IMG/VR virus record: IMGVR_UViG_3300014202_000736
DNA from: a virus
Reading direction: 5' to 3' (one strand)
Length of the DNA: 62,651 nucleotides
The notes under the pieces are model-generated. The model was not told the origin of the DNA and ran no database searches. It worked only from the letters and a program-made list of their open reading frames with translations. Each line of letters begins with the position of its first letter. The stretch's first letter is position 1. Positions 23,862 through 55,094 of the stretch are shown here, piece after piece. Position numbers and translations under genes: made by a program.

Positions 23862-26381
23862 CTATGCAACATCCGTCCAGCGGTCTTCCTCACCAGAACC
23901 CCCTAAATCCGCACTCCGGGACTTGTCACCAGGACCCTGAGCGGCCCTGTTCACCAAGGTGCCGTCCGGGTTGATGAAACGGTCTTCAGTTGTGCTGCCT
24001 GCGATGACCACCTGGCGTTCCTCAGGCGTGGGCGCCTCGATGTGGTAGATGGTCAGGTGGTCGAGCTCGCTGAGCGACACGAGGGCGTTGACGAGGATTT
24101 GGATCTTGAAAAGAATGTCTAGCTCGTCCACCATCGACAAGGAGACGTTGTCGTTGACAGCTAACCCAGTTCTCGGAGCCAGGGTGATGTTCTCCACGGC
24201 CGCCAACGACATAGCACTAGCCATCGTGAGCTCGCCGTTGTAGGTGAGGAGGACAAGGTCCACCAGTCCCGACGACAGAGCGGTGTCGACCAGGAGCGAG
24301 GTCCTGGGCGCGATGGTCGGGGCCTCAACCTGAGTCTCGGAGACGGCGGCGCTCAAGACCAGCTCAGTGCGTGGCAAGACGATGACGTTGTCGGCCAGGC
24401 TTGTCGACGTTGCCGAGTCAGCCAGGATCTGGGTCGTGAGACTAAGGTTATCGGCACTCGAGAGCGAGATACCGCCGTTGATTGTCAGCACGGTCTTAGG
24501 TGCCAAGATCACGTTGTCAGCCTGACCGAGACTTGTGGCCGAAGCCATGGTCAACGTAGTCTTCGGAGAGATGGTAACGTTGCCAGCCTCGGTGAGGCTA
24601 GTCGCCGCCTGCATCGCCAGTGTCGTCTTCGGCGACAACGTCACGCCGTCAGCCAAGGCCAAACTGGTGGCCGAGTTCAGAGTCAACGTCGTCTTCGGCG
24701 ACAAGGTCGGTGAGGTCGTGGTCGCCAGGCTTGTGCTAGCCTGCACGGTGAGAGCGGTCTTCGGCGTCAGGATAACGGCTCCTGCAAGAGATGCAGAGGT
24801 AGCGGAAGCCGGCGCGATCGACGTTTTCGGCAGAAGTGAAATGGTATCTACTAAACTGTCACTCGTAGCTGCTTGAAGTGCAAGGCTTGTCTTCGGCGCG
24901 ATCGTGACGTTGCCAGTCGTGGCACCAGACACCGCAGCCGAAGGTGCTATTGACGTCTTTGGCGCAAGCAACACATTGTCCGCCGAACCGCCGCTGGCCG
25001 CGGCCGCCGGTGCGAGCGCGGTGTTGGACGCCAGCGTCACATTCCCGGCAAGGCTCGCCGAACCCGCCGCGGCGACCGTTAACGCCCAGCGCGGGGTGAG
25101 AGTGAGGATATTCTTATTGCGCAAGATGATGTTGTCGACAGTGCCGACGAAGTTGCCGCCGACGATTGTCAGCGGAGTCGAATTGGCGGCCTGAACGCCG
25201 GTGGGGATCGTCCACGGGGCGCCGGTGCCGATCGGGAATGAAGTCGTGAAGGTGCCGAACTGGACGTCGACGCCGGCGCCGCTGGTGAGCACAACGTCGA
25301 TCAGGATCTCATAATTCCCGCCAGCGCCTACCGAAGTCGGGTCGACCCCGGTGGCGACCAGGTTGCCGGCCGAACTCGAAGGCTTCGACGCCACCCCGCT
25401 CGAGATTACCCAGGGCGAGTTTGCCGCCCATCCTGTGCCGCTCACGAACGTCCCGTCGATCGGAAGCAGATTGACGAACGCTTGGGGATGCGGGCCGATG
25501 CTCGGCGAAACAGCATTAGCGACGACCAAAGCTATCGACGCAGTTGGTGATACCACAACATTGTCGACCAAGCTCAACGACGTCGCATTCGCCGGCACGA
25601 TATCGGTGTTGGGCGAGAGAGTCGGGATGGTTGTGGTCGACGTGCTACTCGCAGCGGCTGCGGTGATGACATCGATGCCAGTAATGGTTGGTGAGTCGGT
25701 TGAGCTTGCGCTCGTGCAGCTAGCGACTGTCAAAGGCCAAGACGGGACGCTGATGTCGAGCTCGATGATCGCCGAACAGAACTCTGAAGCCGAGGCGTTC
25801 CCCCAAGTCTGCGTCGTCGCGGTTTCGCCGCTGTCCCGAGTAATTAAATGAGTGCCAGTGGTCGGCGTCGCATAACCGTTGTCGAAGCGCTCGGTGAACC
25901 CGGTCCGAGGGGTCATTGCAGGAGGATTGGTAGAGTTGAACACCGCTCCGATGATGGCGTTGGCCGTCAACGGCGCCGAGCCGAACACCGGAGCTGGAGT
26001 AGCCGCCGCCTGGTTAGCTTGGGAGGCACTTTGCCGAACTGCGTTTGCGCCGGTACGCGACATACCGGTGACTTTGAAAATAGCCATGCCACCGCCGGTC
26101 GTCGTCCCGGGAGCGTGAGTGAATATGGTGCTAGACGCCGCCGAGATGAAGGCGTCCCGAACGAAGATTTGCAGAGCGTCCGCGTTGGTCGCTTTTCTGA
26201 CTGGAACAATTTGCGTGTAGGTGCCGCTCGAATTATTATCAGTCGGAGTAGCCTGGCTGGTGTTCCCAGTATGCCAAGTGACGATGACGATCAGATCACC
26301 AACGGACGGCGTCGCGGTGACGGTTTTCGTCCCGCTCGTCGTATTATTGATGACGGTCCCGAGAAGTGTTACAGCGGCCAT
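23862..26381 (-). CDS. Large repeat protein (839 aa, fibre-like) with an N-terminal globular domain and about 15 tandem 22-aa repeats
   Basis: The P(K/R)T motif recurs at residues 430, 474, 496, 518, 540, 562, 584, 606, 628, 670, 692 and 736. Degenerate units lie at the intervening 22-residue steps (about 452, 650 and 714). Confidence 0.6.
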   Translation of the reverse strand: MAAVTLLGTVINNTTSGTKTVTATPSVGDLIVIVTWHTGNTSQATPTDNNSSGTYTQIVPVRKATNADALQIFVRDAFISAASSTIFTHAPGTTTGGGMAIFKVTGMSRTGANAVRQSASQANQAAATPAPVFGSAPLTANAIIGAVFNSTNPPAMTPRTGFTERFDNGYATPTTGTHLITRDSGETATTQTWGNASASEFCSAIIELDISVPSWPLTVASCTSASSTDSPTITGIDVITAAAASSTSTTTIPTLSPNTDIVPANATSLSLVDNVVVSPTASIALVVANAVSPSIGPHPQAFVNLLPIDGTFVSGTGWAANSPWVISSGVASKPSSSAGNLVATGVDPTSVGAGGNYEILIDVVLTSGAGVDVQFGTFTTSFPIGTGAPWTIPTGVQAANSTPLTIVGGNFVGTVDNIILRNKNILTLTPRWALTVAAAGSASLAGNVTLASNTALAPAAAASGGSADNVLLAPKTSIAPSAAVSGATTGNVTIAPKTSLALQAATSDSLVDTISLLPKTSIAPASATSASLAGAVILTPKTALTVQASTSLATTTSPTLSPKTTLTLNSATSLALADGVTLSPKTTLAMQAATSLTEAGNVTISPKTTLTMASATSLGQADNVILAPKTVLTINGGISLSSADNLSLTTQILADSATSTSLADNVIVLPRTELVLSAAVSETQVEAPTIAPRTSLLVDTALSSGLVDLVLLTYNGELTMASAMSLAAVENITLAPRTGLAVNDNVSLSMVDELDILFKIQILVNALVSLSELDHLTIYHIEAPTPEERQVVIAGSTTEDRFINPDGTLVNRAAQGPGDKSRSADLGGSGEEDRWTDVA
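24111..25109 (-). repeat. About 15 tandem 66-nt (22-codon) repeats inside the 839-aa gene
   Basis: The plus strand shows recurring gtcttcggcgacaa-type units. The protein consensus is xPKTxLxxxxAxSLxxxxxVxL. Confidence 0.75.
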
Positions 26382-31422: not shown

Positions 31423-31715
31423 GTACAAAAGAACAGAATGACTTTGTGATGCCGGTAGGCAATCTGTACTTTCTGTTCAAACTAAAGAAAAGCCAATGTT
31501 TCCAAGAGCTTAGCTATGAAATAGTACAGATTATTCTCTTCTAACTCTAAAGAGAAAAAGATAAATAGAACAATGGCTAACCTAGGACCAATGGGCAAGG
31601 CCTCTATGGGGCCAATCTGTACTTTGTTCAGCGCGCCATGCTAAGTCGTTGCAACGGCAACAAAACAAAAGTACAGAAGATCTGTTCTACGTGGCTCTCA
31701 GGCGAACAGTTCTCT
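31423..31715. repeat. AT-rich noncoding region with at least 6 CTGTWC/GWACAG-GTAC repeat units and a 13-bp long-range inverted repeat
   Basis: Units: gtacaaaagaacag 31423, ctgtactttctgttc 31464, gtacagattattctc 31524, ctgtactttgttcag 31617, gtacagaagatctgttctac 31671, gaacagttctc 31705. AAGTCGTTGCAAC at 31643 pairs with GTTGCAACGACTT at 31754. Confidence 0.6.
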
Positions 31716-31767
31716 GAAAAAGCCACGATTTGGCTCGACTCGATCGTTACACGGTTGCAACGACTTG

Positions 31768-31926
31768 TTAACGATTGAGGAAGGATTTCAGCTTGACGAT
31801 GGCGCATGGTTCCTCGCCACATGGCTTCTCAGCGGGCGTGCGATACGAGCTAGGTACCACTGTGCAGAGTAAGAAGCCAATGGCTACAACAATCACACAC
31901 GTGAGGACACGGTCAATTCGGTTCAT
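31768..31926 (-). CDS. Candidate small membrane protein (52 aa)
   Basis: Read manually as MNRIDRVLTCVIVVAIGFLLCTVV... with an aaggga SD. It falls below the ORF-track cutoff. Confidence 0.35.
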   Translation of the reverse strand: MNRIDRVLTCVIVVAIGFLLCTVVPSSYRTPAEKPCGEEPCAIVKLKSFLNR

Positions 31927-32017
31927 TGGTCTATCCCTTAGCCGCTATGCGGGTATGATGTGGAGGCGGCACTGACCTCAAAATTGAGTGTCCAGCCGCC
32001 TCCGAGGGTGGCACCGG

Positions 32018-32401
32018 TCAGCCCTGGATCACCGCTTCGACCATCTTGCGGATCTCATCGAGCTTCGGCAGCAGATCTTCTGGGTTCATCTTGGCCGCGC
32101 CTTCGAGCTCGTCCTTGATCTTCCGCTTCTGAGCCTTCAGCTCGAGATCTCGCTGATGCTCGTTATAGCGCTCTTCCGAGACGAGGAAGTCACGACGATA
32201 CTTCGAGGACGATCCACCGATCTCGTCGCCGTCAGGTCCGAAGGTCTTCTTGTACTGGCCATCACCATATTCCCAGATGACTCGGCCCGTCGGCGTGACG
32301 CGCGTGGCGGTCCGTTTCGTGATCCGCACTTCCCATGATCCTGGCGACGCGATGTAGATGGGGTCTCCGGCTTGAATTCCGGCGGTTGAAAACTTGGTCA
32401 T
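32018..32401 (-). CDS. Early protein, hypothetical (127 aa)
   Basis: ORF preceded by GCTGAAGGAG and the upstream box at 32459. Confidence 0.55.
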   Translation of the reverse strand: MTKFSTAGIQAGDPIYIASPGSWEVRITKRTATRVTPTGRVIWEYGDGQYKKTFGPDGDEIGGSSSKYRRDFLVSEERYNEHQRDLELKAQKRKIKDELEGAAKMNPEDLLPKLDEIRKMVEAVIQG

Positions 32402-32458
32402 TGATCGTCTCCTTCAGCAGGCGTTTCGATTATTCACCCTAGTCCGTAAACACGGGCT

Positions 32459-32476
32459 TGTACACAACTATTTTCG
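32459..32476 (-). promoter_or_regulatory. Conserved box CGAAAATAGTTGTGTACA (promoter-like)
   Basis: The plus strand reads tgtacacaactattttcg, 58 nt upstream of ATG 32401. Confidence 0.45.
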
Positions 32477-32487
32477 TTTTGGACGAA

Positions 32488-32673
32488 TTATTTTTCGTCC
32501 TCGATCTCGTAGCGGTAGGCCACGCGAACGATCAACGAGTCGTTCATGTTGCCGGTCAGGACTCGCCAGCCTTCAGGGACAGGGCGGCCGACCGCGAGGC
32601 GGGCTTGTTCGACGATGAGGTCGGTGGACTGGGGATCCATTGGATCGCCTTCGAGTAGGGTGAACTTTTTCAT
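32488..32673 (-). CDS. Early protein, hypothetical (61 aa)
   Basis: ORF coupled to the upstream gene. Confidence 0.5.
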   Translation of the reverse strand: MKKFTLLEGDPMDPQSTDLIVEQARLAVGRPVPEGWRVLTGNMNDSLIVRVAYRYEIEDEK

Positions 32674-32864
32674 GCCGCTTGCTCCTTTCGAGCGTAGCGA
32701 TCGATCCGATTGAACAGATTTTGGACTGCCACTCGGGGCGAGGGACCGAAGTCAAAGATCCCGTCCTTGCAGCCGTCGGTGGCGACTTGAGCGTAGAACT
32801 TGGTGGCGGCGGTCGGCTCGTAGTCAGGGCCGGTCTCGTCGATCTCGATTGTCATCTTGGTCAT
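32670..32864 (-). CDS. Early protein, hypothetical (64 aa)
   Basis: ORF preceded by gctgaaggagatgaccaATG. Confidence 0.5.
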   Translation of the reverse strand: MTKMTIEIDETGPDYEPTAATKFYAQVATDGCKDGIFDFGPSPRVAVQNLFNRIDRYARKEQAA

Positions 32865-32919
32865 TGGTCATCTCCTTCAGCTTGGATGATGTGTACACCC
32901 TAAGCCCGTAGGCGAAGGA

Positions 32920-32937
32920 TGTACACAACTATTTTCA
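32920..32937 (-). promoter_or_regulatory. Conserved box TGAAAATAGTTGTGTACA (promoter-like)
   Basis: The plus strand reads tgtacacaactattttca, 56 nt upstream of ATG 32864. Confidence 0.45.
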
Positions 32938-32948
32938 TCGAAGCGCAA

Positions 32949-33347
32949 TTATTTTTGATCCTCCTTTCGTTGGTAAGTGATGAAACCACCGATCCGATCG
33001 ACCGCACGGCCGAGCGACTGGCACATGGCCATCTTGCCTGTCAGATACAGTTGGCTGTTTCCGAGGCTCATGTAGCTGACTTCGTTCCGTGCGAGCTGTG
33101 CGAGGTCCTTGTGAACTTGTTCGAGATCTTCGATCGTCTCGACTTTCTTGAGGCGGGGGAGAACACTCGTGGTCGCAACACGGCCGTGCATCGAGTCGAC
33201 CACGTGGCTGCCTGCCCACTCGAGCGCGTAGCCGATCCCGTACTTGGTGACGTTTTCGGCGGTCTTGGCTTCGGCTTCTTCGCCGGCTTTGACGTCGCGC
33301 TCGAATTCACGGACGAGGTAGTCGAGTTGGGTCTGGAAGTCGGTCAT
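32949..33347 (-). CDS. Early protein, hypothetical (132 aa)
   Basis: ORF preceded by gctgaaggagaattcaaATG. Confidence 0.55.
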   Translation of the reverse strand: MTDFQTQLDYLVREFERDVKAGEEAEAKTAENVTKYGIGYALEWAGSHVVDSMHGRVATTSVLPRLKKVETIEDLEQVHKDLAQLARNEVSYMSLGNSQLYLTGKMAMCQSLGRAVDRIGGFITYQRKEDQK

Positions 33348-33413
33348 TTGAATTCTCCTTCAGCAGGATCGGAAGCATTTCCGATATTGATAGCCTATAC
33401 CTTTGGGCCAATA

Positions 33414-33431
33414 TGTACATAACTATTTTCG
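33414..33431 (-). promoter_or_regulatory. Conserved box CGAAAATAGTTATGTACA (promoter-like)
   Basis: Read directly. It lies 67 nt upstream of ATG 33347. Confidence 0.45.
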
Positions 33432-33447
33432 TCTGAGCGAAAATAAT

Positions 33448-33675
33448 TTAGTCCGCAACGTCCATCTGTTCGAGAGTCACGGTCGACTGGTTGTCGATAT
33501 CGACCGAGTAGCCGAGGAACAGTTGGCGGATCATAAAGTCTTTGTCACGATTTCCGTCGACCATCCCGTCGTCTTCAAACGCGCGGAGCGCAGAATGTTG
33601 ACTCGCGAAGAGTTGGATCGACATCGGATCGTTCTTCTCGTTCCATAAATGGAACTTCAAAACCCAGACTTTCAT
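33448..33675 (-). CDS. Early protein, hypothetical (75 aa)
   Basis: ORF preceded by gctgaaggagatgaccaATG. Confidence 0.5.
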   Translation of the reverse strand: MKVWVLKFHLWNEKNDPMSIQLFASQHSALRAFEDDGMVDGNRDKDFMIRQLFLGYSVDIDNQSTVTLEQMDVAD

Positions 33676-33729
33676 TGGTCATCTCCTTCAGCTTGGATGA
33701 TTAGTCACCCTAGTCCGTAAGGTGAGGGT

Positions 33730-33747
33730 TGTACACAACTATTTTCG
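33730..33747 (-). promoter_or_regulatory. Conserved box CGAAAATAGTTGTGTACA (promoter-like)
   Basis: Read directly. It lies 55 nt upstream of ATG 33675. Confidence 0.45.
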
Positions 33748-33758
33748 TCTGAGCGCAA

Positions 33759-34172
33759 TTATTTTCTGCGCATCCAATCACGAAGACGAGCTTCGCCGAC
33801 GTGACGATTGATGTACTCGAGCATCGAGATCCCGTCGTCGTGAGCCCATCTAGCAATCTTCGAGTGAACGATCCAGCGGATCGCATCGGCCGAGTATTTT
33901 GAGTTCACGAGATCCTGGATATTCTCGCGCCACGACTCTGGGTCGTAGAGATGCGCTTCTTCTAACGCATAAGCATCGCTCGTATCGTCGACGAGTTCTG
34001 AGACCAAATCATCTTTGTCAACTTCGCGGAGCTGCTCGCAGTTCGAGATGATGAGTGACCGAGTGTGGTTCCAAGCTCCGAGCTCAGAACCTTCGAGCAT
34101 ATCGGAAGCACCATCCATGCGATGTACGGCGCGAGCGATCTCTTCGTCGGTGAAGTCAATCAGATTTTTCAT
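33759..34172 (-). CDS. Early acidic protein, hypothetical (137 aa, net charge about -12)
   Basis: By my count there are 29 D/E against 17 K/R. It is the first gene of the leftward early array. Confidence 0.55.
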   Translation of the reverse strand: MKNLIDFTDEEIARAVHRMDGASDMLEGSELGAWNHTRSLIISNCEQLREVDKDDLVSELVDDTSDAYALEEAHLYDPESWRENIQDLVNSKYSADAIRWIVHSKIARWAHDDGISMLEYINRHVGEARLRDWMRRK

Positions 34173-34220
34173 CGTTCGTCTCCTTGATTATGGGATCATC
34201 CTACTTCGCGAACAAAACTT

Positions 34221-34238
34221 TGTACATAACTATTTTCG
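34221..34238 (-). promoter_or_regulatory. Conserved box CGAAAATAGTTATGTACA (promoter-like)
   Basis: Read directly. It lies 49 nt upstream of ATG 34172. Confidence 0.45.
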
Positions 34239-34308
34239 CGGATCGCGCATTTTTTTCTTGGCATATATCATCGGGTGCGCGCGTGCACGTAGATCGGGAA
34301 AATTCAAT

Positions 34309-34353
34309 TGTACAATACTTTTTTCACATCGAGCGAAAATAAATTGATGTACA
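34309..34353. promoter_or_regulatory. Back-to-back degenerate boxes: tgtacaatacttttttca (leftward) and cgaaaataaattgatgtaca (rightward)
   Basis: Read directly in the 500-bp divergent intergenic region. Confidence 0.35.
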
Positions 34354-34480
34354 TTTCTATGTTCTTGAGAGAGGATGCGGCTGAATATCCGAAGGAGGAT
34401 CATCTTGCCGACGCCGCTATGCGCGCCGACACCGAACTTACGTTCTGTCCCTGGGCCCATCTGTGTCCAGGACACGGCGG

Positions 34481-34655
34481 ACCTACCTCTGCCGCGACCT
34501 ACCTCTGTGTGTCCGGCACTAGACCTACCTCTGCCGCGACCTATCTCGACCGCGACCTACCTCCGTGTGTTAGGATCTTAACCTACCTCTGCCGCGACCT
34601 ACCTACGAAAATAGTTATGTACAAACCTACCTCCACGATCTAAGATCAACCTACC
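34481..34655 (+). repeat. Iteron-like array of nine same-orientation copies of ACCTACCTC (and variants), nested in about 45-bp imperfect repeats GACCTACCTCTGCCGCGACCTACCTC
   Basis: Copies start at 34481, 34497, 34523, 34539, 34555, 34581, 34597, 34625 and 34649. Confidence 0.8.
34606..34623 (+). promoter_or_regulatory. Conserved box CGAAAATAGTTATGTACA (promoter-like), embedded in the iteron array
   Basis: It lies 54 nt upstream of ATG 34677. Confidence 0.45.
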
Positions 34656-34676
34656 AAACGCTGAAGGAGAGTCCGA

Positions 34677-34820
34677 ATGGCTAGTCGCCACACCATTGAG
34701 TGCCCAGTCTGCCTCGCACCACCAGGTTCACCGTGTCGTGAGCAGGTGGGAGACAACCAACGCATTATGCGCCGCGGCCACAAGGAACGTCGTGGCAGCA
34801 GCGAAGTAAAGTCACGATGA
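34677..34820 (+). CDS. Small Cys-containing (zinc-ribbon-like) basic protein (47 aa)
   Basis: Read manually as MASRHTIECPVCLAPPGSPCRE.... It is preceded by gctgaaggag and has an ATGA overlap with the next gene. Confidence 0.45.
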   Translation: MASRHTIECPVCLAPPGSPCREQVGDNQRIMRRGHKERRGSSEVKSR

Positions 34821-35113
34821 CCATCATCCTCCCAGCCCACCTCTACGACCCAGCCGACGCGTTCAGGATCTTCCAAGGCCTGCCGCCACGTACGCAGGCG
34901 GAGAAGGATCACAAAGCGAAGCGCTTAGCCACCTTGATCCAGATCCATCGTGAGGAGTTCCAGGCCTACCAAGTCATCAGGGAAGCTCCAAGAAACCCTG
35001 ACGAACCCGCGATCGAGTGGGCTAGGCGCATGTGGCTGTCGATGGATGCCATGGACGCCAGGATCCAGAAGCGTCAGGCTGAGTGGGACCTAGCCAACCC
35101 AAGTCCTGAATAA
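34817..35113 (+). CDS. Hypothetical protein (98 aa)
   Basis: ORF. Confidence 0.5.
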   Translation: MTIILPAHLYDPADAFRIFQGLPPRTQAEKDHKAKRLATLIQIHREEFQAYQVIREAPRNPDEPAIEWARRMWLSMDAMDARIQKRQAEWDLANPSPE

Positions 35114-35155
35114 CCTACTCGAGGTATACGGACCGACCAACCTGAGAGAGTAACC

Positions 35156-35377
35156 ATGATCGACGAAGCTTCTGAACCACCAACCTCCAAGGAGCCCGAT
35201 GCGCTCCCCCACCCTGAGGGCTGGGTTTACCTTGGCCAGACCAGGGAGGAACGTCCCTTCGGCGAGGTGGATGGGAAGCCGATCACCATGCTCTTCCTGT
35301 TCAACAACTACTACCGCACCCAGGACGACACTGGCAAGACCAGGCTGTCGGTGATGCAGATCCAGGTGCACGAGTGA
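35156..35377 (+). CDS. Hypothetical protein (73 aa)
   Basis: ORF. Confidence 0.5.
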   Translation: MIDEASEPPTSKEPDALPHPEGWVYLGQTREERPFGEVDGKPITMLFLFNNYYRTQDDTGKTRLSVMQIQVHE

Positions 35378-35658
35378 TGACCAATCCAACCACTGAAACA
35401 GCCGAACTGGTGGAGCGGTTGCGGCGCAATCAGGCGGCGTCTGCGACCTCCATCACCTTGCTTAGCAGAGATGTGGACGCCCTTCTCACCCTCTCCTCGC
35501 GTGTGCGGGAACTCGAAGTCGCTCTGCACGATGAAGTCGAGGCGCTGATACTGCTGCGGATCAACTCGTCAGGCAATCGACCAACGTGCGACGTTTTGAC
35601 TTCGCGGATCGACTATCTCCGCACCGCTCTCACCAATAGTGATCGGACTGGAGGGTAA
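35374..35658 (+). CDS. Hypothetical protein (94 aa)
   Basis: ORF with an ATGA overlap. Confidence 0.5.
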   Translation: MMTNPTTETAELVERLRRNQAASATSITLLSRDVDALLTLSSRVRELEVALHDEVEALILLRINSSGNRPTCDVLTSRIDYLRTALTNSDRTGG

Positions 35659-37909: not shown

Positions 37910-38071
37910 CGTGTTTACATAGGGTGCCTTTTCGTGGTACCCACCGAACTGACGGTCGGGTGGTCGAGCGCCAACGCGCTAGCCCATGCCCCGCCCTCGT
38001 TGAGAGCCGCCCGGGAAGGTCTCCTTCAGCAGCGGCCGCTCGGCCGTCACCCTTCCATCAGGAGAGACCTC

Positions 38072-42500: not shown

Positions 42501-42714
42501 ATCTGAGTTCCAGGCTCACGTGGCCTGCCACCTCACGAAGCGTGCCGAACGGTGTTTGCCACTCGTAGTGGCCGAGTTCGACCTTGGTGACCTTCCCAAG
42601 ATCCTTGACCGAAAAGCCACACTCGTTGGCGTCAATTTCGAACTGGAGGTTGGAGCAAAACTCGCTCTCGTTCCTCATGTCCACGAATTTTTCGAGCTTC
42701 TCTTTTGTCAACAT
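42499..42714 (-). CDS. Hypothetical protein (71 aa), a lone leftward gene in the rightward block
   Basis: The start is set at MLTKEK, preceded by cgctgaaggagagaagg. The upstream box is at 42782. Confidence 0.5.
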   Translation of the reverse strand: MLTKEKLEKFVDMRNESEFCSNLQFEIDANECGFSVKDLGKVTKVELGHYEWQTPFGTLREVAGHVSLELR

Positions 42715-42781
42715 CCTTCTCTCCTTCAGCGCAAGGCCGACCTCGACCCCGCGTGAGCATTCTAGCATACTTTTGAGGCCT

Positions 42782-42800
42782 TGTACATAACTTTTTTCAC
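42782..42800 (-). promoter_or_regulatory. Degenerate conserved box (GAAAAAAGTTATGTACA), leftward
   Basis: The plus strand reads tgtacataacttttttcac, 68 nt upstream of ATG 42714. Confidence 0.4.
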
Positions 42801-42806
42801 TCGATA

Positions 42807-42836
42807 CGAAAAAATAGTTGAAAATAACTGTGTACA
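42807..42836 (+). promoter_or_regulatory. Duplicated conserved box CGAAAAAATAGTTGAAAATAACTGTGTACA, rightward
   Basis: Read directly. It lies 80 nt upstream of ATG 42916. Confidence 0.45.
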
Positions 42837-42915
42837 ATGCCCGAAAGCCGTGGTAGAATGGTCACGTCGACAGGATGACGTCGACGGCTCTTTGAAACTG
42901 CTGAAGGAGAATGAA

Positions 42916-43494
42916 ATGTCACAGGCATTTAAGTTGACTCGCAACCGTGAGATCTCACCAGGTTGCGGTGAAGACCTCGGCCAAACTCTGGCTCGCCTCG
43001 CCGCCATGGAGATGGAACGGCATATCGCCAATCCTAACGCCAAGGTGGCACATTGGGGCGACGGCGTTGCCCAACTCTTCCACTTTGCTGCCGATGCTTA
43101 CGAAGCCGGCGCTTCGGTGACGATCGGCCACAATCGGTCGGATCGCTACATTGCCGCTGCTAAGCAGCATCGCTCGATGGCTGACGAGCTTATCAACCAG
43201 GCCAAGATCTTTCGTGACGAAGTCCGGTCTGCTCGTTTGCTGGCGGCGTTCGACGACGGGTACGCAGGTCGTGACATCTCTCGCCACCATTTCGAGGCGA
43301 GAGAAGCTGCGATTGTCGGAAAACTCTTCGCCGAGTCCAACGAACCGATGCCGAAGCGGATCAACAAGATCTATTCGCCTCGGCCTCTCGGCAAAGACAG
43401 TTCGCTCGACCACCTGTTGGTAGATGATATGAAGTTCGTTGTCATCTACCCCGATGGGAAAATCAAGGACGGGTTTGCCAAACCGATAGCCTGA
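42916..43494 (+). CDS. Hypothetical protein (192 aa)
   Basis: The start follows gctgaaggagaatgaa. Confidence 0.55.
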   Translation: MSQAFKLTRNREISPGCGEDLGQTLARLAAMEMERHIANPNAKVAHWGDGVAQLFHFAADAYEAGASVTIGHNRSDRYIAAAKQHRSMADELINQAKIFRDEVRSARLLAAFDDGYAGRDISRHHFEAREAAIVGKLFAESNEPMPKRINKIYSPRPLGKDSSLDHLLVDDMKFVVIYPDGKIKDGFAKPIA

Positions 43495-43562: not shown

Positions 43563-43889
43563 ATGTTTGGATCTCTGATCTTGATCGTGTCTGCGTTCTC
43601 CATGGCTTCAGCTCAGGAGCGTTTGATAAACTGTGTCAGCCAGAATGCTGTTGCCCTTGGTCGAGACAACCAAGAGCCAGCAGACTCAGTCATCAAGGCG
43701 GCGAATGGTCGATGCGCACGAGAGTGGTCAGTCGTCGAGAGCTACCAGGCTGTTGGCAGCATCGGCGCCTCTGCTGCTGGACGATCCTTCTCCCAAAGGT
43801 TCAACGACTCTAGGGACCAAGAAGAAAGGGCTTTGAGAGACACAGTCTATCTGGCTGCATTCGAAAGTTTGATGGCCGCACGAAAATAG
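43563..43889 (+). CDS. Secreted small protein (signal peptide)
   Basis: The signal peptide is MFGSLILIVSAFSMASA|QE, and an aggag SD precedes the start. Confidence 0.55.
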   Translation: MFGSLILIVSAFSMASAQERLINCVSQNAVALGRDNQEPADSVIKAANGRCAREWSVVESYQAVGSIGASAAGRSFSQRFNDSRDQEERALRDTVYLAAFESLMAARK

Positions 43890-43898
43890 TTATGTACA
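43881..43898 (+). promoter_or_regulatory. Conserved box CGAAAATAGTTATGTACA
   Basis: It overlaps the end of the upstream gene and lies 55 nt upstream of ATG 43953. Confidence 0.45.
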
Positions 43899-43952
43899 TC
43901 CTAGGCCTAAGGGTCTAGGGTGCATTCATCGAACTGCTGAAGGAGATGACCA

Positions 43953-44738
43953 ATGACCGTTTCACAAGATAAACTTAACAAGGTCCGTCTTCTGATCAAG
44001 AAGGCCCAAGGCACCGACAACCCTCATGAGGCCGCAGCCTTCATGAACAAGGCCCAGGCCATGATGGTCGCCGAGGGCGTTGACATGCAAGCCGTTGAGA
44101 TGACCCAGATCGGAGAGTCTAGGGTCAAGAGCAAATTCACTGCCTCCAAGCCAGCGATGCATGAGGCTACTTTGATGCACGCCGTGTGTGAGGCCTTTGG
44201 CTGCAAGCTTCTTTGGATCGGCGCCGTGACGTCGGAGATGACCCCGTTCGGCAAGGTCCGTTACAGCGACAGCTACGGTCGCTTCGTCATCGTCGGCAGC
44301 AAGGACCGACTGAACCTCGCCACCTACGCCGCTGAGGTTCTCCAACGCCAGATGGTCAAGGCCAGGACTGAGTTTGTTCAGAAGCGATCAACCGCCTATT
44401 GGGACGTGGCCATCGGAGAAAACTTTGGTCTCGCTGCTCGCGACATCAGAGAGAACAAAGAGCTCAAAAGGCTCATCCGCAAGCAGGTCACCAAGGATGC
44501 CGACTCGTTCGCCTCTGGCTGGGCTTGGAAGATCCGCGAGAAGGTAACCAAGTTCGCCCTTAACGACCAGGAGCAACTGCTCCTTGACGGTTACAAGAAC
44601 GACATTCCCAAGGCCGAGACGAAGAAGCGCGAGCTCGGCCCTGACTTTCACAAGGGCGTGGCCGCCGCAGAAAGAGCAGACCTTCATCGACCAGTCGAAG
44701 ACTCGGTCCTGACACCTAAATCAATAGGTGCGGCGTGA
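43953..44738 (+). CDS. DUF2786-like protein
   Basis: The N-terminal segment KVRLLIKKAQGTDNPHEAAAFMNKAQAMM fits the pattern KLLAxAxxTxNxxEAxxAxxKAQxLM. Confidence 0.65.
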   Translation: MTVSQDKLNKVRLLIKKAQGTDNPHEAAAFMNKAQAMMVAEGVDMQAVEMTQIGESRVKSKFTASKPAMHEATLMHAVCEAFGCKLLWIGAVTSEMTPFGKVRYSDSYGRFVIVGSKDRLNLATYAAEVLQRQMVKARTEFVQKRSTAYWDVAIGENFGLAARDIRENKELKRLIRKQVTKDADSFASGWAWKIREKVTKFALNDQEQLLLDGYKNDIPKAETKKRELGPDFHKGVAAAERADLHRPVEDSVLTPKSIGAA

Positions 44739-44920
44739 TGGAAATGACCTGCACCCGCTGCTTTGGGCCAGCGGAAGGCACGCCTCCGACTGGCCTAACA
44801 GCAAATCAAATCGTCATTCTCTCCGGTACGTGGAAGTGTCTGAAGTGCCTTGATGAATTAGAAGCAGACGAAAATAAAAATGAATACGAAAATAGTTGTG
44901 TACATAGCCCGCAGGCCTAG
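44738..44920 (+). CDS. Zinc-ribbon protein (60 aa)
   Basis: The motif is CTRC...CLKC. The last 50 nt carry the next conserved box. Confidence 0.45.
   Translation: MEMTCTRCFGPAEGTPPTGLTANQIVILSGTWKCLKCLDELEADENKNEYENSCVHSPQA
44869..44904 (+). promoter_or_regulatory. Duplicated conserved box CGAAAATAAAAATGAATACGAAAATAGTTGTGTACA
   Basis: Read directly. It is followed by the hairpins gcaggc/gcctgc and ccggcac/gtgccgg and lies 66 nt upstream of ATG 44970. Confidence 0.45.
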
Positions 44921-44969
44921 GTAGCCTGCATCTACCGGCACGGTGCCGGCCATGCTGAAGGAGAATGAA

Positions 44970-45953
44970 ATGTCGCATGAACTGACCAAGCGTAGAGACG
45001 GCACGTACGAGCACGCCTTCGTCGGAGAAGTCGGCTGGCACGGGCTGGGCAACCAGCTCAAAGAAAATTCGAAGCTCGAGACCTGGCTGAAGGCTGCCGG
45101 CATGGACTGGGACATCAAGCGCTCGGCCATGATGTTCCAACCTGAGGACAACGGCCCTGTCGAAATCGACGGCCGCCAGATCCTCTATCGCGCTGACAAT
45201 CATCTTGCCCTCGGCGAGGTCAGCCAGCACTACAAGGTGGTGCAGCCCAAGGAAGTCCTCGAATTCTTTCGAGATCTCTGCGACAACAACGGCTTCGCTC
45301 TCAACACGGCGGGAACCTTGTTCGGAGGCAAGCGCTTCTGGGCTTTGGCCTCCATCGGCGAGACCGCGGTCGTGGTCGGCGAAGACCAGATCAAGGGCTA
45401 CTTGCTCTTGGCCACGAGCGCCGACGGTAGCCTCGCCACGACGGCTCAGTTCACCAGCATTCGAGTGGTGTGCAACAACACGCTGAGCTGGGCCCATTCT
45501 GAGGGCAAGAAGAAAAAGACCGGACGCGTCAGTGTCAGCCACCGCAGCCTCTTCAAGCCTGATGACGTCAAGGACGACCTCGGCATCGTGCGCGGCCAGT
45601 TCCGTGACTTCATGGTCGCCGCTCGTGCCCTGTCGAAGGTCAAGGCCTCTAAGCCTCTTGCGTCAGACTTCGTTTCGACGCTTCTGACTGACTCGAAGAC
45701 GATTGCGTCGGCTGAGCCGGCCAGCACGAAGGCCTTCAAACGGATCATGGAGCTCTTTGAGGGTCAGGGCAAAGGCGCTGACCTGAAGGGATCCAAGGAC
45801 ACGATGTGGGGCTTGGTCAACTCGGTCACCGAGTACGTCGACCATCACCAGAACGTCAAGTCGATCGAGCACCGGATGAACGACGCATTCTTCGGCCGCG
45901 GTGACCAGCTCAAGCGAATGGCGATGGACATGGCCATGGAGCAGGTCAAGTGA
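44970..45953 (+). CDS. DUF932 / TIGR03299-like phage-plasmid protein
   Basis: The N-terminal segment is YEHAFVGEVGWHGLGNQL. Size is about 327 aa. Confidence 0.7.
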   Translation: MSHELTKRRDGTYEHAFVGEVGWHGLGNQLKENSKLETWLKAAGMDWDIKRSAMMFQPEDNGPVEIDGRQILYRADNHLALGEVSQHYKVVQPKEVLEFFRDLCDNNGFALNTAGTLFGGKRFWALASIGETAVVVGEDQIKGYLLLATSADGSLATTAQFTSIRVVCNNTLSWAHSEGKKKKTGRVSVSHRSLFKPDDVKDDLGIVRGQFRDFMVAARALSKVKASKPLASDFVSTLLTDSKTIASAEPASTKAFKRIMELFEGQGKGADLKGSKDTMWGLVNSVTEYVDHHQNVKSIEHRMNDAFFGRGDQLKRMAMDMAMEQVK

Positions 45954-46132
45954 GCGTCTGGAAAGAGATCCGCTGCGACGGCCAAGATCCTAGGTCCGAC
46001 GACTGCAAAGACAACAACAATTTAGGTCCAAAGGGCTTTGAAAGCGCGTCTGAGCTAAAGGCCGAAGCCCGAAAAGAGGGCTGGCTGATTAAGGGCGACC
46101 AGGCTATTTGTCCAGCTTGTCGCAAACACTAA
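45950..46132 (+). CDS. Hypothetical small Cys-containing protein (60 aa)
   Basis: GTG start overlapping the upstream stop. CPAC lies at the C-terminus. Confidence 0.45.
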   Translation: MSVWKEIRCDGQDPRSDDCKDNNNLGPKGFESASELKAEARKEGWLIKGDQAICPACRKH

Positions 46133-46146
46133 CTTTTTTGTGTACA
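46129..46146 (+). promoter_or_regulatory. Degenerate conserved box CTAACTTTTTTGTGTACA
   Basis: It is followed by two GC hairpins (cccag/ctggg and ccccagg/cctgggg) and lies 99 nt upstream of ATG 46245. Confidence 0.4.
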
Positions 46147-46244
46147 ACCCCAGACCCGCTGGGTAGCATCCAAATCGAGGGAACTCCCCAGGTCAGCTTC
46201 GGCTGCCTGGGGATGCTCCCAAAACCTTTGCTGAAGGAGCCACC

Positions 46245-46646
46245 ATGGCTGAGAAAAAGAAGACCTACAAGTTCCCGAAGTCCATGGGCCTCTGTGCCGA
46301 CCAGCTCTACGCCACCCGCGAAAAGAGGCTCAAGGCCCAGAAAATCGTGGACGAGATCGACGCCGAGGAGAAGGCTCTTAAGGCCTTCATCATCGACAAC
46401 CTGCCGAGGAGTCAGCAGACTGGTGCCAGCGGCAAGGTGGCGAACGTCCGGATCGTCGACAAGGAGATCCCTCAGATCGCAGACCTCGATGCCTTCTACA
46501 CCTATCTCCGCCGGACCAAGCGGAACGATTTGCTGCAGAAGCGCCTGAACGAAGGCGCCGTGCTCGAGATCATCGACAGCGGCAAGACCGTGCCGGGCAT
46601 CAACATGTTCAACGTCAAAACGGTCTCGTTGACGAAAGCGAAATAA
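46245..46646 (+). CDS. Hypothetical protein (133 aa), in the replication/recombination module
   Basis: ORF preceded by tgctgaaggagccacc. Confidence 0.5.
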   Translation: MAEKKKTYKFPKSMGLCADQLYATREKRLKAQKIVDEIDAEEKALKAFIIDNLPRSQQTGASGKVANVRIVDKEIPQIADLDAFYTYLRRTKRNDLLQKRLNEGAVLEIIDSGKTVPGINMFNVKTVSLTKAK

Positions 46647-51853: not shown

Positions 51854-53210
51854 GCGGGCACTCATCATTCCGCCTCTCCGTCCAGCGTATCTGGTCTGGC
51901 CCGCCGAGGTGGACAAGTGGAAGCAGTTCGAGCATCTGACGTACACCGTTCTCCACGGCAACGATAAGGAGGACCGTCTACTCGACGACGTTGACCTCTA
52001 CATCATGAACTGGGAAGGCCTGGACTGGCTTCTCGGCGCTGAGTCGTTCACCACCAAGACGGGTCGCAAGGGGGTGGAGCTTGATCTCAAGCGCCTGAAG
52101 GATCTCGAATGCGACACGCTCATCTTCGACGAGCTGACCAAGGCCAAGAACCACCAGTCCATTCGGTTTCAGATGCTCAAGCAGATTGTCCCGCTCTTTG
52201 CCCGAAGGTGGGGGTTGACTGGTTCGCCGGCTGCCAACGGCCTGATGGGTCTGTTTGGTCAGACGTACGTCATCGACGAGGGACGAACCTTCGGCCCCTA
52301 CATCTCGCCGTTTCGAAGCAAATACTTCTTCCAGCACCCGTACATGAAATTCCGCTGGGACATCAAGACCGAGAAGGACCACGGGTTCGATGGCGAGCAG
52401 GCCATCTTCGACGCTCTGAAGCCTCTCGCGATGCGGGTGGACGCAGCGGACCACATCAAGATGCCGAAGCCGGTGCCACTTCGCGTGGACGTGGAGCTGC
52501 CGAAAAAGGTTCGCGAGGTCTACGACATGATGGAGGAGGATCTCTTCGCCCTCGTGTCGACTGGCAAGAAGGACCAGGTGCTGCCGTCTACTGCCGCCAA
52601 CTCAGGAGTGGCGTTAGGAAAATGCCGTCAGATTGCCTCAGGTGCGTTGTACACCGACCGAGGTGAGATGTTCAAAGGCTTCAAGACGATCGCCGGCACC
52701 AGGCCATACATCGACCTGCACAACGAAAAGCTCGACGCTCTCGAGGAACGGCTTGAGGAGCTTCAGGGCCAGCCATACTTGCTCGGCTACGAATATCAGC
52801 ACACGCTCGACCGGATCCTGAAGCGCTTCGGCAAGCGGGTGACCGTGTTCGGTGGTTCCGGAGACATGCGAGCCGAGAAGAAGATCGAGGACGCGTGGAA
52901 CGCTGGCGACATTGAGCTGCTCGTGGGCCACCCGCAGTCGATCGGCCACGGCTTGAACCTCCAAGGCTCGAGCCAGAACGTTGGCTTCATCGACCCCATC
53001 TGGGACTACGAGCTCTACGACCAGTTCTATCGTCGTGTGCTTCGTCAAGGCAATCGCCATGAGTACGTGTACATCGACCACTACGTCGCCCTGGACACGG
53101 TCGACGAAGTCATCTACCAGGTGTCCGCACTTGAGGGGTCGAAGGCCAAGCAGCAGACCAGGTTCTTCGACGCACTCATGGGAAGAAAAAAGTCAAAGGA
53201 CCGAAAATAA
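51672..53210 (+). CDS. SNF2/DEAD-like helicase
   Basis: The motifs are PHKFQGKAV, LASPGAGKT, LIFDELTKAKN, LLVGHPQSIGHGLNLQ and YRRVLRQGN. Confidence 0.85.
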   Translation: MTEKKRYVKSAEPWKPHKFQGKAVQRLMDNATQMLLASPGAGKTSVSLDAFRRLQDRGVAKRALIIPPLRPAYLVWPAEVDKWKQFEHLTYTVLHGNDKEDRLLDDVDLYIMNWEGLDWLLGAESFTTKTGRKGVELDLKRLKDLECDTLIFDELTKAKNHQSIRFQMLKQIVPLFARRWGLTGSPAANGLMGLFGQTYVIDEGRTFGPYISPFRSKYFFQHPYMKFRWDIKTEKDHGFDGEQAIFDALKPLAMRVDAADHIKMPKPVPLRVDVELPKKVREVYDMMEEDLFALVSTGKKDQVLPSTAANSGVALGKCRQIASGALYTDRGEMFKGFKTIAGTRPYIDLHNEKLDALEERLEELQGQPYLLGYEYQHTLDRILKRFGKRVTVFGGSGDMRAEKKIEDAWNAGDIELLVGHPQSIGHGLNLQGSSQNVGFIDPIWDYELYDQFYRRVLRQGNRHEYVYIDHYVALDTVDEVIYQVSALEGSKAKQQTRFFDALMGRKKSKDRK

Positions 53211-53218
53211 CTGTGTAC
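53202..53218 (+). promoter_or_regulatory. Conserved box CGAAAATAACTGTGTAC
   Basis: It spans the SNF2 stop codon and is followed by the hairpin gagcctc/gaggctc. It lies 54 nt upstream of ATG 53272. Confidence 0.45.
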
Positions 53219-53271
53219 TCTAGGTGAGCCTCGCAATAGGGTGAGGCTCTCGTGCTGAAGGAGAATGACCA

Positions 53272-54180
53272 ATGACAACCGAAATTCGTCCGTGCCAGCA
53301 GATTGGCGTCAAGCGCATTTGCTTCCTGGTGGACCTCGACAAGACCAGGGCCAAGATCCTGGACAACTTCGTCTGGGCCGTCGCCACCAAAGAGATCCCG
53401 ATCAAGGTCTGGAAGAAGGAGTGGAAGACGCTCCAGCTGCCTGAGGACAAGGTCGCGAAGATCCTCGACGGCCTAGCTGCCTACGCCATCTACGCTGGCA
53501 TGACGCCTGACGCAGGCGAGTACCTGCCGAACATGGTGCCGATGTCACAGCCGGCCCGGACCGTGGCCCTCAGCAAGGGCAAGGAGCTGCTCGAGCGCTA
53601 CAAGACCCAGGCCGAAATCGAAGAGGCGGCTGAAAAAGCCGGCAAGCCTCTGACCGGCGCCGCTCTGATGAGCGTCGTCAAGCGCGAGCTAGCCAAGGTC
53701 AGCGCCGAGGATGGGCTTCGGGGCCTGGACACACCTCCGGAGCAGCTCTCCGAACCAGGCACCGGCAACACGGCGACTGAGGACGGAGAGGTCACGCAGG
53801 ACAAGCCAGCTGGCCGAGTCGCTCGCCGAACCGAGACCAAGAAGGCGAAGCAGATTAAGACGCTCGCCGCCGAGGTCACGAAGGATCTGACCGAAGCTGA
53901 GCAGGCCGGCGAAAACCCGGCGAAGATCATGAAGAGCCGACCTCCAGTCGAACGGTCGAAGGGTTTTGACCCGGCCAAGCTCAAAGGCTCCGACGGCGAA
54001 TATAAGTCCGTCTCGGCCATGTTCAAGGGCCTCGTCCTCGAGAACGTCGGTAAGAAAAAGCCGTTGACCGACGACCAGATCTTCGAGAAGGTCAAGGCCA
54101 AGTTTGGCATCGACGAGTCAAAGCGCGGCTACGTCCAATGGAACCGCAATTGGCTGAAGAAGGAAGGAGTCATCGCATGA
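53272..54180 (+). CDS. Hypothetical protein (302 aa) with a charged central linker
   Basis: ORF preceded by gctgaaggagaatgacca. Confidence 0.5.
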   Translation: MTTEIRPCQQIGVKRICFLVDLDKTRAKILDNFVWAVATKEIPIKVWKKEWKTLQLPEDKVAKILDGLAAYAIYAGMTPDAGEYLPNMVPMSQPARTVALSKGKELLERYKTQAEIEEAAEKAGKPLTGAALMSVVKRELAKVSAEDGLRGLDTPPEQLSEPGTGNTATEDGEVTQDKPAGRVARRTETKKAKQIKTLAAEVTKDLTEAEQAGENPAKIMKSRPPVERSKGFDPAKLKGSDGEYKSVSAMFKGLVLENVGKKKPLTDDQIFEKVKAKFGIDESKRGYVQWNRNWLKKEGVIA

Positions 54181-54923
54181 GCAAGAGCATCATCGACCAA
54201 CAGGAGGTCGTTGTCGAGTCGGCCGATGGCAAGACCATCACTTATCGTTTCCAGCTCGAACGAGCAGACGACGTATTTACGATGTTGGTCTCAGCCGCCG
54301 ACTCCACTGGCAACTCTATTCGCCTTCGTGATGGTGACCACTACGTCGGCATGGTCCTGATGGCTCAGGCCAACATGATCGAGCAAGGGCTCCATATCAA
54401 GGAGCACGGGCCCGACGTGATGGAGGACATCGTCAAGTTCCATCAGAAGTTCAGCCTCGAATATCACGGCAAGCCGAGGATGCTCGAACCCGAGCTCTTC
54501 GACTTCCGCAGCCGCTTCCTCGAGGAGGAGCTGACCGAGTGGCGAGAGGAACAGGTCGGCCTGATCGAGGCGTTGACCTCGGACGACGGCAAGCCTGACC
54601 ATCGGCGCGTGGCCCTCGGTCTGCATCAACAGCTCGACGCGCTGGTCGACCTCGTCTACGTCGCCGTCGGCACGGCCTATCTCCAGTTCGGCCGCAAGAT
54701 TTTCAACGAGGCGTGGCGCAGGGTCCAGGCTGCCAACATGAGCAAGATCCGGGCCGAGAACGCCGGCCTGTCGAAGCGTGGCTCAGCGTTCGACGTTGTC
54801 AAGCCCGAAGGCTGGCAGGCGCCGGACCATCACGACCTCGTGAAGGACCACGCCCACATTCCGTTCCGGCAAAGCGGAGAGCTGAACCCAGGCCACGAAA
54901 AAGACACCCAGGTGATCGCATGA
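54177..54923 (+). CDS. MazG-like all-alpha NTP pyrophosphohydrolase with an extra N-terminal domain of about 85 aa
   Basis: The motifs are FHQKF...RFLEEELTEW...DALVDLVYVAVGTAY...EAWRRVQAANMSK. The start has an ATGA overlap. Confidence 0.7.
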   Translation: MSKSIIDQQEVVVESADGKTITYRFQLERADDVFTMLVSAADSTGNSIRLRDGDHYVGMVLMAQANMIEQGLHIKEHGPDVMEDIVKFHQKFSLEYHGKPRMLEPELFDFRSRFLEEELTEWREEQVGLIEALTSDDGKPDHRRVALGLHQQLDALVDLVYVAVGTAYLQFGRKIFNEAWRRVQAANMSKIRAENAGLSKRGSAFDVVKPEGWQAPDHHDLVKDHAHIPFRQSGELNPGHEKDTQVIA

Positions 54924-55093
54924 AGATCCAAATCGTATTGCCACTCTACAAAGAGTGCGTAGGCAGCTGGCGCTACCAGGCTGAGGACAAGGACGCCGTG
55001 ATCCAATCGGTCTACATTCGGAAGTCGGCCTTCAAGCAAGGCGAGCCTCCACCGAAGAGCATCCTTATCACGGTCAACGGGGTGGAGGCCTGA
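54920..55093 (+). CDS. Hypothetical protein (57 aa)
   Basis: Read manually. The start has an ATGA overlap. Confidence 0.4.
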   Translation: MKIQIVLPLYKECVGSWRYQAEDKDAVIQSVYIRKSAFKQGEPPPKSILITVNGVEA

Positions 55094-55094
55094 G

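Follow-up and report, generated by a model that had tools for sequence, protein, structure and literature searches.

The virus record IMGVR_UViG_3300014202_000736 from IMG/VR comprises 62,651 bases at 58% GC. This stretch, which was analysed over its full length and is called the window below, is a tailed phage genome according to gene calling and profile searches. Positions 2085-31068 of the minus strand encode terminase, portal, a MuF-like protein, the major head protein, tail tube and a tape measure of 1419 amino acids (aa). The plus strand encodes, from 34677 to the end of the window and then from 1 to 2016, primase, DNA polymerase I, helicase, a PD-(D/E)XK nuclease, DUF932 and DUF2786 proteins and a nucleotide-modification set. 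Six small leftward ORFans lie between these two blocks, and the subject of this analysis is the near-identical cassette, composed of an 18 bp box (CGAAAATAGTTRTGTACA), a -10 hexamer and a ribosome site, that recurs in front of early genes in the window. Neither Pfam nor PHROGs assigns a function to the genes of the leftward array, and PDB sequence searches with the 192-aa, 329-aa and 133-aa early proteins gave nothing usable. At the DNA level, the region 31500-35500 has no match, near or distant, among 50,697 phage records. Rfam matched nothing in the window, and no tRNAs were found in it.

The window was scanned with the query CGAAAATAGTTGTGTACA, allowing up to three mismatches and taking the expectation from shuffles. 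Eleven copies of the box were found, distributed over both strands, against 0.01 expected. Five of these lie on the minus strand in front of the leftward genes (32459, 32920, 33414, 33730 and 34221) and correspond to the five cassettes of the original prediction; all are in place, with GCTGAAGGAG (in the last one CAAGGAG) and an ATG after each box. The predicted number of copies is nevertheless too low, as six further strong boxes occur outside the region first described (34606, 42819, 43881, 44887 and 53202 on the plus strand and 42782 on the minus strand) together with two degenerate copies (34309 on the minus and 46130 on the plus strand). Every copy is oriented towards the next gene and all 11 strong sites are co-oriented with it, in agreement with the proposed arrangement of one promoter and ribosome-site cassette per small transcription unit. 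The end of the box is separated from the ATG, which is preceded by AAGGAG, by 48-79 nt in the 11 strong sites and by 48-66 nt in the five array cassettes, for which 49-67 nt had been given. Exact copies of GCTGAAGGAG number 12, ten of which lie 11-43 nt past the -10 hexamer of a strong box, with an eleventh serving the degenerate box at 46130. The exact copy at 38021-38030 (minus strand), which has no box upstream and no open reading frame (ORF) downstream, looks like chance or the remnant of a lost cassette. The box and the ribosome-site 10-mer GCTGAAGGAGA are the top over-represented 10-mers of the window, and the structural gene block contains no box copy.

Aligning the strong sites by their boxes places a TAnnnT hexamer exactly 17 nt past TGTACA in ten of them and 16 nt past it in the remaining one. 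The hexamers are TAGGGT (five times), TAGAAT (twice), TAGGAT, TAAGAT, TAGCCT and TAGGCT. With this hexamer set at -12 to -7, the conserved block occupies -47 to -30 and is followed by a variable spacer and then by TAnnnT; the information content amounts to 28.4 bits for the 18 bp box, 3.0 bits for the 17 bp spacer and 6.1 bits for the hexamer. Because the conserved element ends at -30 and a free spacer separates it from TAnnnT, the layout is that of a bipartite sigma-70 promoter, with 17 ± 1 bp between a -35-like element and the -10 hexamer. Within the block, GTGTACA spans -36 to -30 and GAAAATAGTT spans -46 to -37. GTGTAC, present in 10/11 sites, is a one-base variant (G at -34) of a GTTTAC-like element at -36 to -31 and retains the G at -36, while GAAAATA at -46 to -40 in every strong site provides an A-rich tract over -40 to -44 that resembles an upstream promoter (UP) element. 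An extended -10 (TGn) of the T4 type is seen only at 42782 (minus strand) and 42819 (plus strand), and a generic sigma-70 scan detects the two TAGAAT sites.

A second A/T tract peaks at -65 to -60, where the A+T content is 82% compared with 42% for the genome. The AT-rich box had been described as duplicated, and an upstream copy is indeed present, direct in four units and inverted in one; the gap is however 8 nt and not 9 nt, and this copy is better called an A/T tract. The 'partly conserved leader' TTACGGACTAGGGTGA turned out not to be part of the transcript. Since the TAGGGT that it contains lies exactly 17 nt past TGTACA, it consists of the promoter spacer and the -10 hexamer.

We consider it probable that each cassette functions as a strong promoter, early or pre-replicative, for the housekeeping (sigma-70 family) RNA polymerase of the host, built like the early promoters of T4-like phages. 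Region 4 of sigma would dock onto the -35 element GTGTAC(A) at about -36 to -30, and the adjoining GAAAATAG(TT) at about -46 to -38 would act as a proximal UP-type A-tract for the C-terminal domain of one alpha subunit. The looser A/T tract near -60 to -65 would serve the second alpha subunit, and region 2 of sigma would contact the -10 TAnnnT after the non-conserved 17 bp spacer. Transcription would then start about 7 nt after the -10 hexamer and generate a short leader ending in the ribosome site GCTGAAGGAG, 6-8 nt before the ATG. The genes driven in this way would be the six small leftward ORFans, the rightward run from 34677, the divergent pair at 42.8 kb and the genes at 43953, 44970, 46245 and 53272. 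After the start of the run from 34677 the next boxes are found only at 42782 and 42819. The cassettes are best read as early or pre-replicative because none is located in the structural block, with the timing itself presumed by analogy with T4. The host is likely to be a proteobacterium, judging from the similarity of the phage proteins to those of Stenotrophomonas, Pseudomonas and Xanthomonas phages.

The early promoters of T4 form a UP/-35/TGn/-10 class with additional consensus regions and are active without phage protein synthesis (Hinton, PMC2988021). Those of T4-like phages have GTTTAC at -36 to -31, in which the G at -36 is strongly conserved, an A-rich, UP-like stretch at -40 to -44 and a -10 hexamer whose positions -12, -11 and -7 are T, A and T, and many of them precede novel small ORFs (Nolan et al., PMC1524935). 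For T4 and PST the consensus is TTTACW-N17-TAYWAT (Comeau et al., PMC4122927). The box of the window agrees with the T4-like consensus at each position except for a G in place of T at -34, and this variant is also found in the T-even phage MHG19. The resemblance covers the G-T-K-T-A-C element at -36 to -31 with its conserved G, the A-rich tract at -40 to -45, the further upstream A/T tract, the 17 bp spacer and the TAnnnT hexamer, as well as the location in front of small early ORFs and of genes for replication and nucleotide metabolism. A short BLAST search with the box found matches in the intergenic regions of T-even phages. Yersinia phage MHG19 has the exact 17-mer (GAAAATAGTTGTGTACA), with TAGAAT after a further 17 nt. 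The first 50 kb of T4, where sites were located by pattern and compared with the published consensus rather than with mapped start sites, contain near-identical 18-mers such as TTCAAAAAGTTGTTTACT-N17-TATGAT and TTAAAATAACTGTTTACT-N17-TACTAT 5' of modB, srd, dmd, motB and other genes. The boxes at 42819 (TGAAAATAACTGTGTACA) and 53202 (CGAAAATAACTGTGTACT) agree with TTAAAATAACTGTTTACT at 15-16 of the 18 positions.

In other respects the window departs from T4. The carrier is not a T4-like myovirus but a 58% GC siphovirus with a tape measure, a tail tube and a YuA/PaMx28-like portal, and DUF932 is the only T4-like gene that was matched. Its portal is 32-33% identical to those of PaMx28 and of Xanthomonas and Stenotrophomonas siphoviruses, the portal, capsid and tail genes being YuA/PaMx28-like. 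The replication module is AXL3-like, with a DNA polymerase that is 48-49% identical to those of Stenotrophomonas phage AXL3, Pseudoxanthomonas phage PW916 and the metagenomic phage MW202621. The promoters themselves differ from the T4 type in the G at -34, in G-rich -10 hexamers such as TAGGGT, in the rarity of TGn and in an upstream half that is far more uniform (18 versus 5.6 bits). The cassettes would act like T4 early promoters, but they are not a T4-family element by genome descent.

The A/T tracts at positions for the alpha C-terminal domains, abutting the -35 element, are also reminiscent of promoters with UP elements such as Escherichia coli rrnB P1, where the proximal element lies at -45 to -37 (PMC2613000). 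Unlike in promoters of that type, the sequence in the window is fixed and not merely A/T-rich, and the centre of the second tract, near -62, lies somewhat further upstream than the canonical distal subsite. Two further candidate classes were rejected. An actinophage with stoperators or SAS/ESAS-type start-associated sequences does not fit, as the relatives of the portal, DNA polymerase and DUF932 proteins are phages of Proteobacteria and each box has its own -10 hexamer. Upon inspection, the box lacks the dyad or core of host regulator sites (NtcA GTA-N8-TAC, CRP/FNR-type and IHF).

The distribution of the box was assessed with an exact scan for the 17-mer GAAAATAGTTRTGTACA in IMG/VR and in 596 Gb of bacterial and archaeal genomes. 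IMG/VR contains 115 exact sites in 94 loci with GC contents of 28-61%. TAnnnT is present exactly at +17 in 91 of the 115 sites, and in 65 of these 91 it is accompanied by the TG of an extended -10, typically as TGnTATAAT; about 75 loci possess the 17-mer with the same spacing. The bacterial and archaeal genomes yielded 92 single, taxonomically scattered sites, compared with about 140 expected for uniform composition, and only 1/92 has TAnnnT at +17. Given the chance-level bacterial count and the difference between 1/92 and 91/115, the motif is a feature of phages and the coupling between box and hexamer is not a by-product of composition. Many of the loci with low GC come from T4-like myoviruses (contigs of 124-350 kb). 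Loci L194-L197, from phages with a related DNA polymerase, also carry the box. A full-text literature search for 10-14-mers of the box retrieved no relevant paper.

The window and the T4-like loci have DUF932 as their only common family. In two of the IMG/VR loci (L029 and L093, about 44% GC, with proteins in common with the T4-like group) the exact box stands directly 5' of a DUF932 gene, the product of which is only about 28% identical to the DUF932 protein of the window, whose gene also has a box directly upstream. An all-versus-all BLAST comparison of 5,732 ORFs, complemented by a comparison of the window with MW202621, revealed no protein family common to all box loci, which is a weak negative as the loci are partial. 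As no such family was found, the host polymerase would be the common denominator. In MW202621 (locus L187), four minus-strand sites (15499, 30166, 31401 and 35430) have an imperfect palindrome of the type CTAGTRCWTGTMCTAG about 10-15 bp 5' of the box. This palindrome is absent from the window and may be a regulator site.

The coordinates of all cassettes in the window are collected in Table 1.

Table 1. Box-bearing cassettes and degenerate boxes in the window, with their promoter elements, ribosome sites and genes
Feature	Span	Strand	Box	-10 hexamer	Ribosome site	ATG	Genes and remarks
Cassette 1	32399..32500	-	32459-32476	TAGGGT 32436-32441	GCTGAAGGAG 32409-32418	32399-32401	Gene 32018-32401 (-), 127 aa, weak ProQ-C-like match (Pfam); A/T tract and hairpin GGACGAA..TTCGTCC upstream at ~32480-32500
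Cassette 2	32862..32960	-	32920-32937	TAGGGT 32897-32902	32872-32881	32862-32864	Genes 32670-32864 and 32488-32673 (-); 12-bp inverted repeat GTGTACA..TGTACAC enclosing spacer and -10
Cassette 3	33345..33455	-	33414-33431	TAGGCT 33392-33397 (16-nt spacer)	33355-33364	33345-33347	Gene 32949-33347 (-), 132 aa, sole array gene common to relative L012; upstream A/T copy inverted, AATTATTTTCG
Cassette 4	33673..33775	-	33730-33747	TAGGGT 33707-33712	33683-33692	33673-33675	Gene 33448-33675 (-); distal GAAAATAATTG
Cassette 5	34170..34260	-	34221-34238	TAGGAT 34198-34203	AAGGAG 34180-34185 (CAAGGAG)	34170-34172	Gene 33759-34172 (-)
Degenerate box	34309..34326	-	TGAAAAAAGTATTGTACA, 4 mismatches		absent		Palindrome with an oppositely oriented box-like copy; probably a decayed cassette
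Rightward cassette	34606..34679	+	34606-34623	TAAGAT 34641-34646	34660-34669	34677	47-aa zinc finger, then rightward genes to ~42147 including primase; no further box
Divergent cassette, leftward	42712..42799	-	42782-42799	TGcTAGAAT 42759-42764	42721-42730	42712-42714	Gene of 71 aa (-)
Divergent cassette, rightward	42819..42918	+	42819-42836	TGgTAGAAT 42854-42859	42900-42909	42916	Gene of 192 aa (+)
Cassette before DUF2786/DUF7168 gene	43881..43955	+	43881-43898	TAGGGT 43916-43921	43936-43945	43953	
Cassette before DUF932 gene	44887..44972	+	44887-44904	TAGCCT 44922-44927	44954-44963	44970	Leader hairpin CCGGCA..TGCCGG
Degenerate cassette	46130..46247	+	TTGTGTACA, T-tract replacing A-tract	TAGCAT 46164-46169 (17-nt spacer)	GCTGAAGGAG 46230-46239	46245	
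Cassette 3' of helicase gene	53202..53274	+	53202-53219 (CGAAAATAACTGTGTACT)	TAGGGT 53237-53242	53254-53263	53272	

The same composite unit is known from T4-like phages as the PeSL (early promoter with stem-loop) cassette, in which an A/T-rich region, -35 and -10 elements, a Shine-Dalgarno sequence and an ATG are placed among ORFans and mark indels (Arbiol 2010, PMC2839356; Comeau 2014, PMC4122927). As in PeSLs, the unit in the window is repeated between consecutive small ORFans, is clustered in a variable region and is absent from the structural genes. Gene replacement was examined against one relative, the IMG/VR contig 3300002075_000003 (loci L012, L013 and L191), which is the closest one and has replication proteins that are 55-84% identical to those of the window. 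Its boxes are syntenic, located 5' of homologues of the 192-aa, DUF2786 and DUF932 genes (the latter two in L013). The leftward array of the relative has six cassettes with ORFs of 84, 93, 132, 136, 130 and 70 aa, and only one of the six array genes is common to both phages, the 132-aa ORF of L012 being 54% identical at the amino-acid level to that at 32949-33347. The corresponding block of DNA homology, 32859-33432 in the window, stops at the two flanking cassettes. For this relative, the boundaries of gene replacement coincide with the cassettes, as described for PeSLs.

Three differences from PeSLs were noted: the carrier phage is not T4-like, the defining upstream stem-loop terminator is inconsistent and some units have an inverted repeat at a different place. 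Hairpins upstream of the box are found only at 32476, 33431 and 33747 (3/11); they are weak and none has a T-run. In several units it is instead the spacer and the -10 hexamer that are enclosed by an inverted repeat, and inverted repeats were scored at 32937 (z = -6.3), 43881 (z = -3.7) and 53202 (z = -2.4). Because the stem-loop terminator is not constant, we regard the cassettes as PeSL-like in function without counting them among the PeSLs. Since the same cassette of about 75 bp flanks unrelated small genes, it probably functions, by analogy with PeSLs, as a portable homology patch for gene swapping between related phages. On sequence grounds the cassettes are best described as T4-type early sigma-70 promoters in a PeSL-like arrangement in a siphovirus lineage, where they are undescribed as far as the searchable literature shows.

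Several features weigh against reading the cassettes as promoters of the host polymerase. The -10 hexamers are poor matches to TATAAT (3/6 for TAGGGT), the -35 element agrees with TTGACA at 4/6 positions, and TGn is found in just 2/11 sites. The 28.4 bits of the box exceed the 13.5 bits that suffice to specify 11 sites in the genome, and the 12 nt upstream of the -35 hexamer hold 18 bits here compared with 5.6 bits in T4. This excess of information is unexplained by alpha and sigma contacts alone. In addition, the box is absent from AXL3 and from 8 of the 14 related IMG/VR loci scanned, despite a similar DNA polymerase; L192, L193 and L198-L204 were found to lack it. Such an uneven distribution, together with the uniformity of the box, could reflect concerted evolution through recombination between cassettes, adaptation to the host polymerase or a second protein that reads the box.

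The last of these leads to the alternative that survives best, although we regard it as rather unlikely: the box would additionally be bound by a dedicated protein that switches the promoter on or off or enhances it, with the host polymerase still transcribing. The protein could be encoded by the phage, delivered with the virion or supplied by the host, for example as a shut-off repressor, an Alt-like modifier of alpha or a protein that prefers modified thymine. Besides the excess of information, the comparison with the closest relative speaks for such a factor. The boxes are identical at 17-18 of 18 positions while the proteins are only 54-84% identical, synonymous sites between the two phages must be saturated, and an A/G polymorphism at position 12 of the box has been kept at one orthologous site, which argues for selection and not for ongoing homogenization. 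All six sites of MW202621 carry a lineage-specific TTTACA variant of their own, the window possesses a set of genes for thymidine and nucleotide modification, and the way in which T4 turns off its early genes has yet to be explained (PMC2988021). Against this, transcription has to begin at the first promoters when no phage protein exists yet, and recombination between cassettes could equally maintain uniformity. No candidate DNA-binding protein was found to co-occur with the box in the partial loci available; the only DNA-binding-like product near a cassette is the 47-aa zinc finger, which adjoins iterons, a different repeat. An alt-like ADP-ribosyltransferase was not found in the Pfam or PHROGs scan. 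A bolder version, to which we give a similarly small chance, makes the box also the target of an unrecognized factor, virion-delivered or early and possibly reading thymine modification, that boosts or shuts off transcription, or else makes the cassette mobile between myoviruses and siphoviruses with cargo such as DUF932. It stems from the excess of information in the box and from its identity across phages at 54-84% protein identity, and at about 28% for the T4-like DUF932.

The original prediction had favoured a single-subunit phage polymerase or a dedicated factor on account of the 18 bp element. That the cassettes serve a phage RNA polymerase, a phage sigma factor or a MotA-type appropriation instead of the unmodified host polymerase now appears very improbable. 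A T7-type promoter is one contiguous block across the start site (in N4 a hairpin) and needs a phage polymerase gene. The window shares with T7, SP6 and N4 a long, almost invariant element in about a dozen copies per genome with excess information, and the weak agreement of its -10 and -35 elements with the E. coli consensus points in the same direction. Its conserved block is however placed at -47 to -30 with a separate -10 hexamer, and the next 17 nt hold 3 bits. As the original prediction had also stated, no RNA polymerase or sigma gene is detectable: about 90 proteins were scanned at the sensitivity of Pfam or PHROGs, and none matched a domain of an RNA polymerase, sigma, MotA, AsiA or ADP-ribosyltransferase. 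The MotA box (TGCTT) is centred at -30, 11-13 bp from the -10 hexamer, and neither this geometry nor its sequence is seen here, where the spacing is 17 bp. The layout is bipartite, with a variable 17 bp spacer and TAnnnT, and the same box occurs in T-even phages, in a class of promoters read by the host sigma-70 polymerase.

The many ORFans could hide a novel factor: no family match exists for the 839-aa ORF, the one large ORF left unassigned, nor for either product of the strongest divergent pair (192 aa and 71 aa). The 839-aa ORF (23862-26381, minus strand, between terminase and portal) was considered as a hidden polymerase or Alt-like protein and rejected, since it has no Pfam, PHROG or PDB match and consists of low-complexity Ala/Ser/Thr repeats devoid of polymerase motifs. 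It contains about 12 tandem units of L-S/A-P-K-T-x-L and is probably a structural or decoration protein.

That the boxes are terminators, RNA-processing sites or selfish or recombination repeats between genes can practically be dismissed: inverted repeats and upstream hairpins do occur in some cassettes and cassettes do delimit gene replacement, but no stem with a T-run coincides with any box, the hairpins are inconstant, and the fixed TAnnnT spacing, the strict co-orientation, a ribosome site and ATG within 66 nt and the -10 hexamer in 91/115 phage sites versus 1/92 bacterial sites fit promoters.

Read as host-polymerase promoters, the cassettes provide a ready transcription map for an otherwise unannotated phage, with 11-13 early promoters and none in the structural genes. 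The T4-style early box is not confined to T4-like myoviruses and is sometimes common base for base to unrelated tailed phages of 28-61% GC, which makes it useful as a marker of early genes in metagenomic phage contigs. The cassette is also a compact candidate for strong portable promoters. Its tight conservation touches on a puzzle in T4, namely the purpose of the 'additional consensus' of early promoters and the early shut-off. Module shuffling by way of promoters, the idea behind PeSLs, would extend to a siphovirus, in which gene replacement is likewise bounded by cassettes.

Short hairpins are present in predicted 5' leaders just before the ribosome site at 44935-44952, at 33366-33384 and at about 2120-2140 of L013. 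In the DUF932 leader a compensatory change preserves pairing (CCGGCA/TGCCGG in the window, CGGGCA/TGCCCG in the relative), and the leader of the gene 32949-33347 has a conserved stem ATCGGAA/TTCCGAT.

The rightward cassette at 34606 is embedded in an array of RACCTACCTC iterons. Eight copies in the same orientation are located in 34480-34655 (plus strand), in pairs 16 bp apart, compared with an expectation of 2.8 for the window as a whole. The box lies between the last copies, one copy fills the spacer of the promoter, and the first gene past the array encodes the 47-aa zinc finger (PF24623). These repeats may form an operator array or mark a replication origin.

The plus strand also carries a cluster for nucleotide modification, with a thymidylate-synthase-like protein (60442-61260), dCMP deaminase (61551-62129), ThyX (1067-1738), a MazG/PRA-PH-like pyrophosphatase (54177-54923), a PLP-enzyme-like protein (58548-59513) and a GDSL-like protein (55095-56114). 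This cluster (54177-62129 and 1067-1738) suggests that the DNA of the phage contains hypermodified pyrimidines. About 900 bp separating the leftward array from the structural block are without convincing genes (31450-31720 and 31960-32005, read on the minus strand) and include an A/T-rich stretch with the repeats AAAGTACAGATTG and CTGTAC; this region could be a packaging site, a genome end or a late control region. Directly after the gene 32018-32401 there is a 9 bp GC stem, GGAGGCGGC..GCCGCCTCC.

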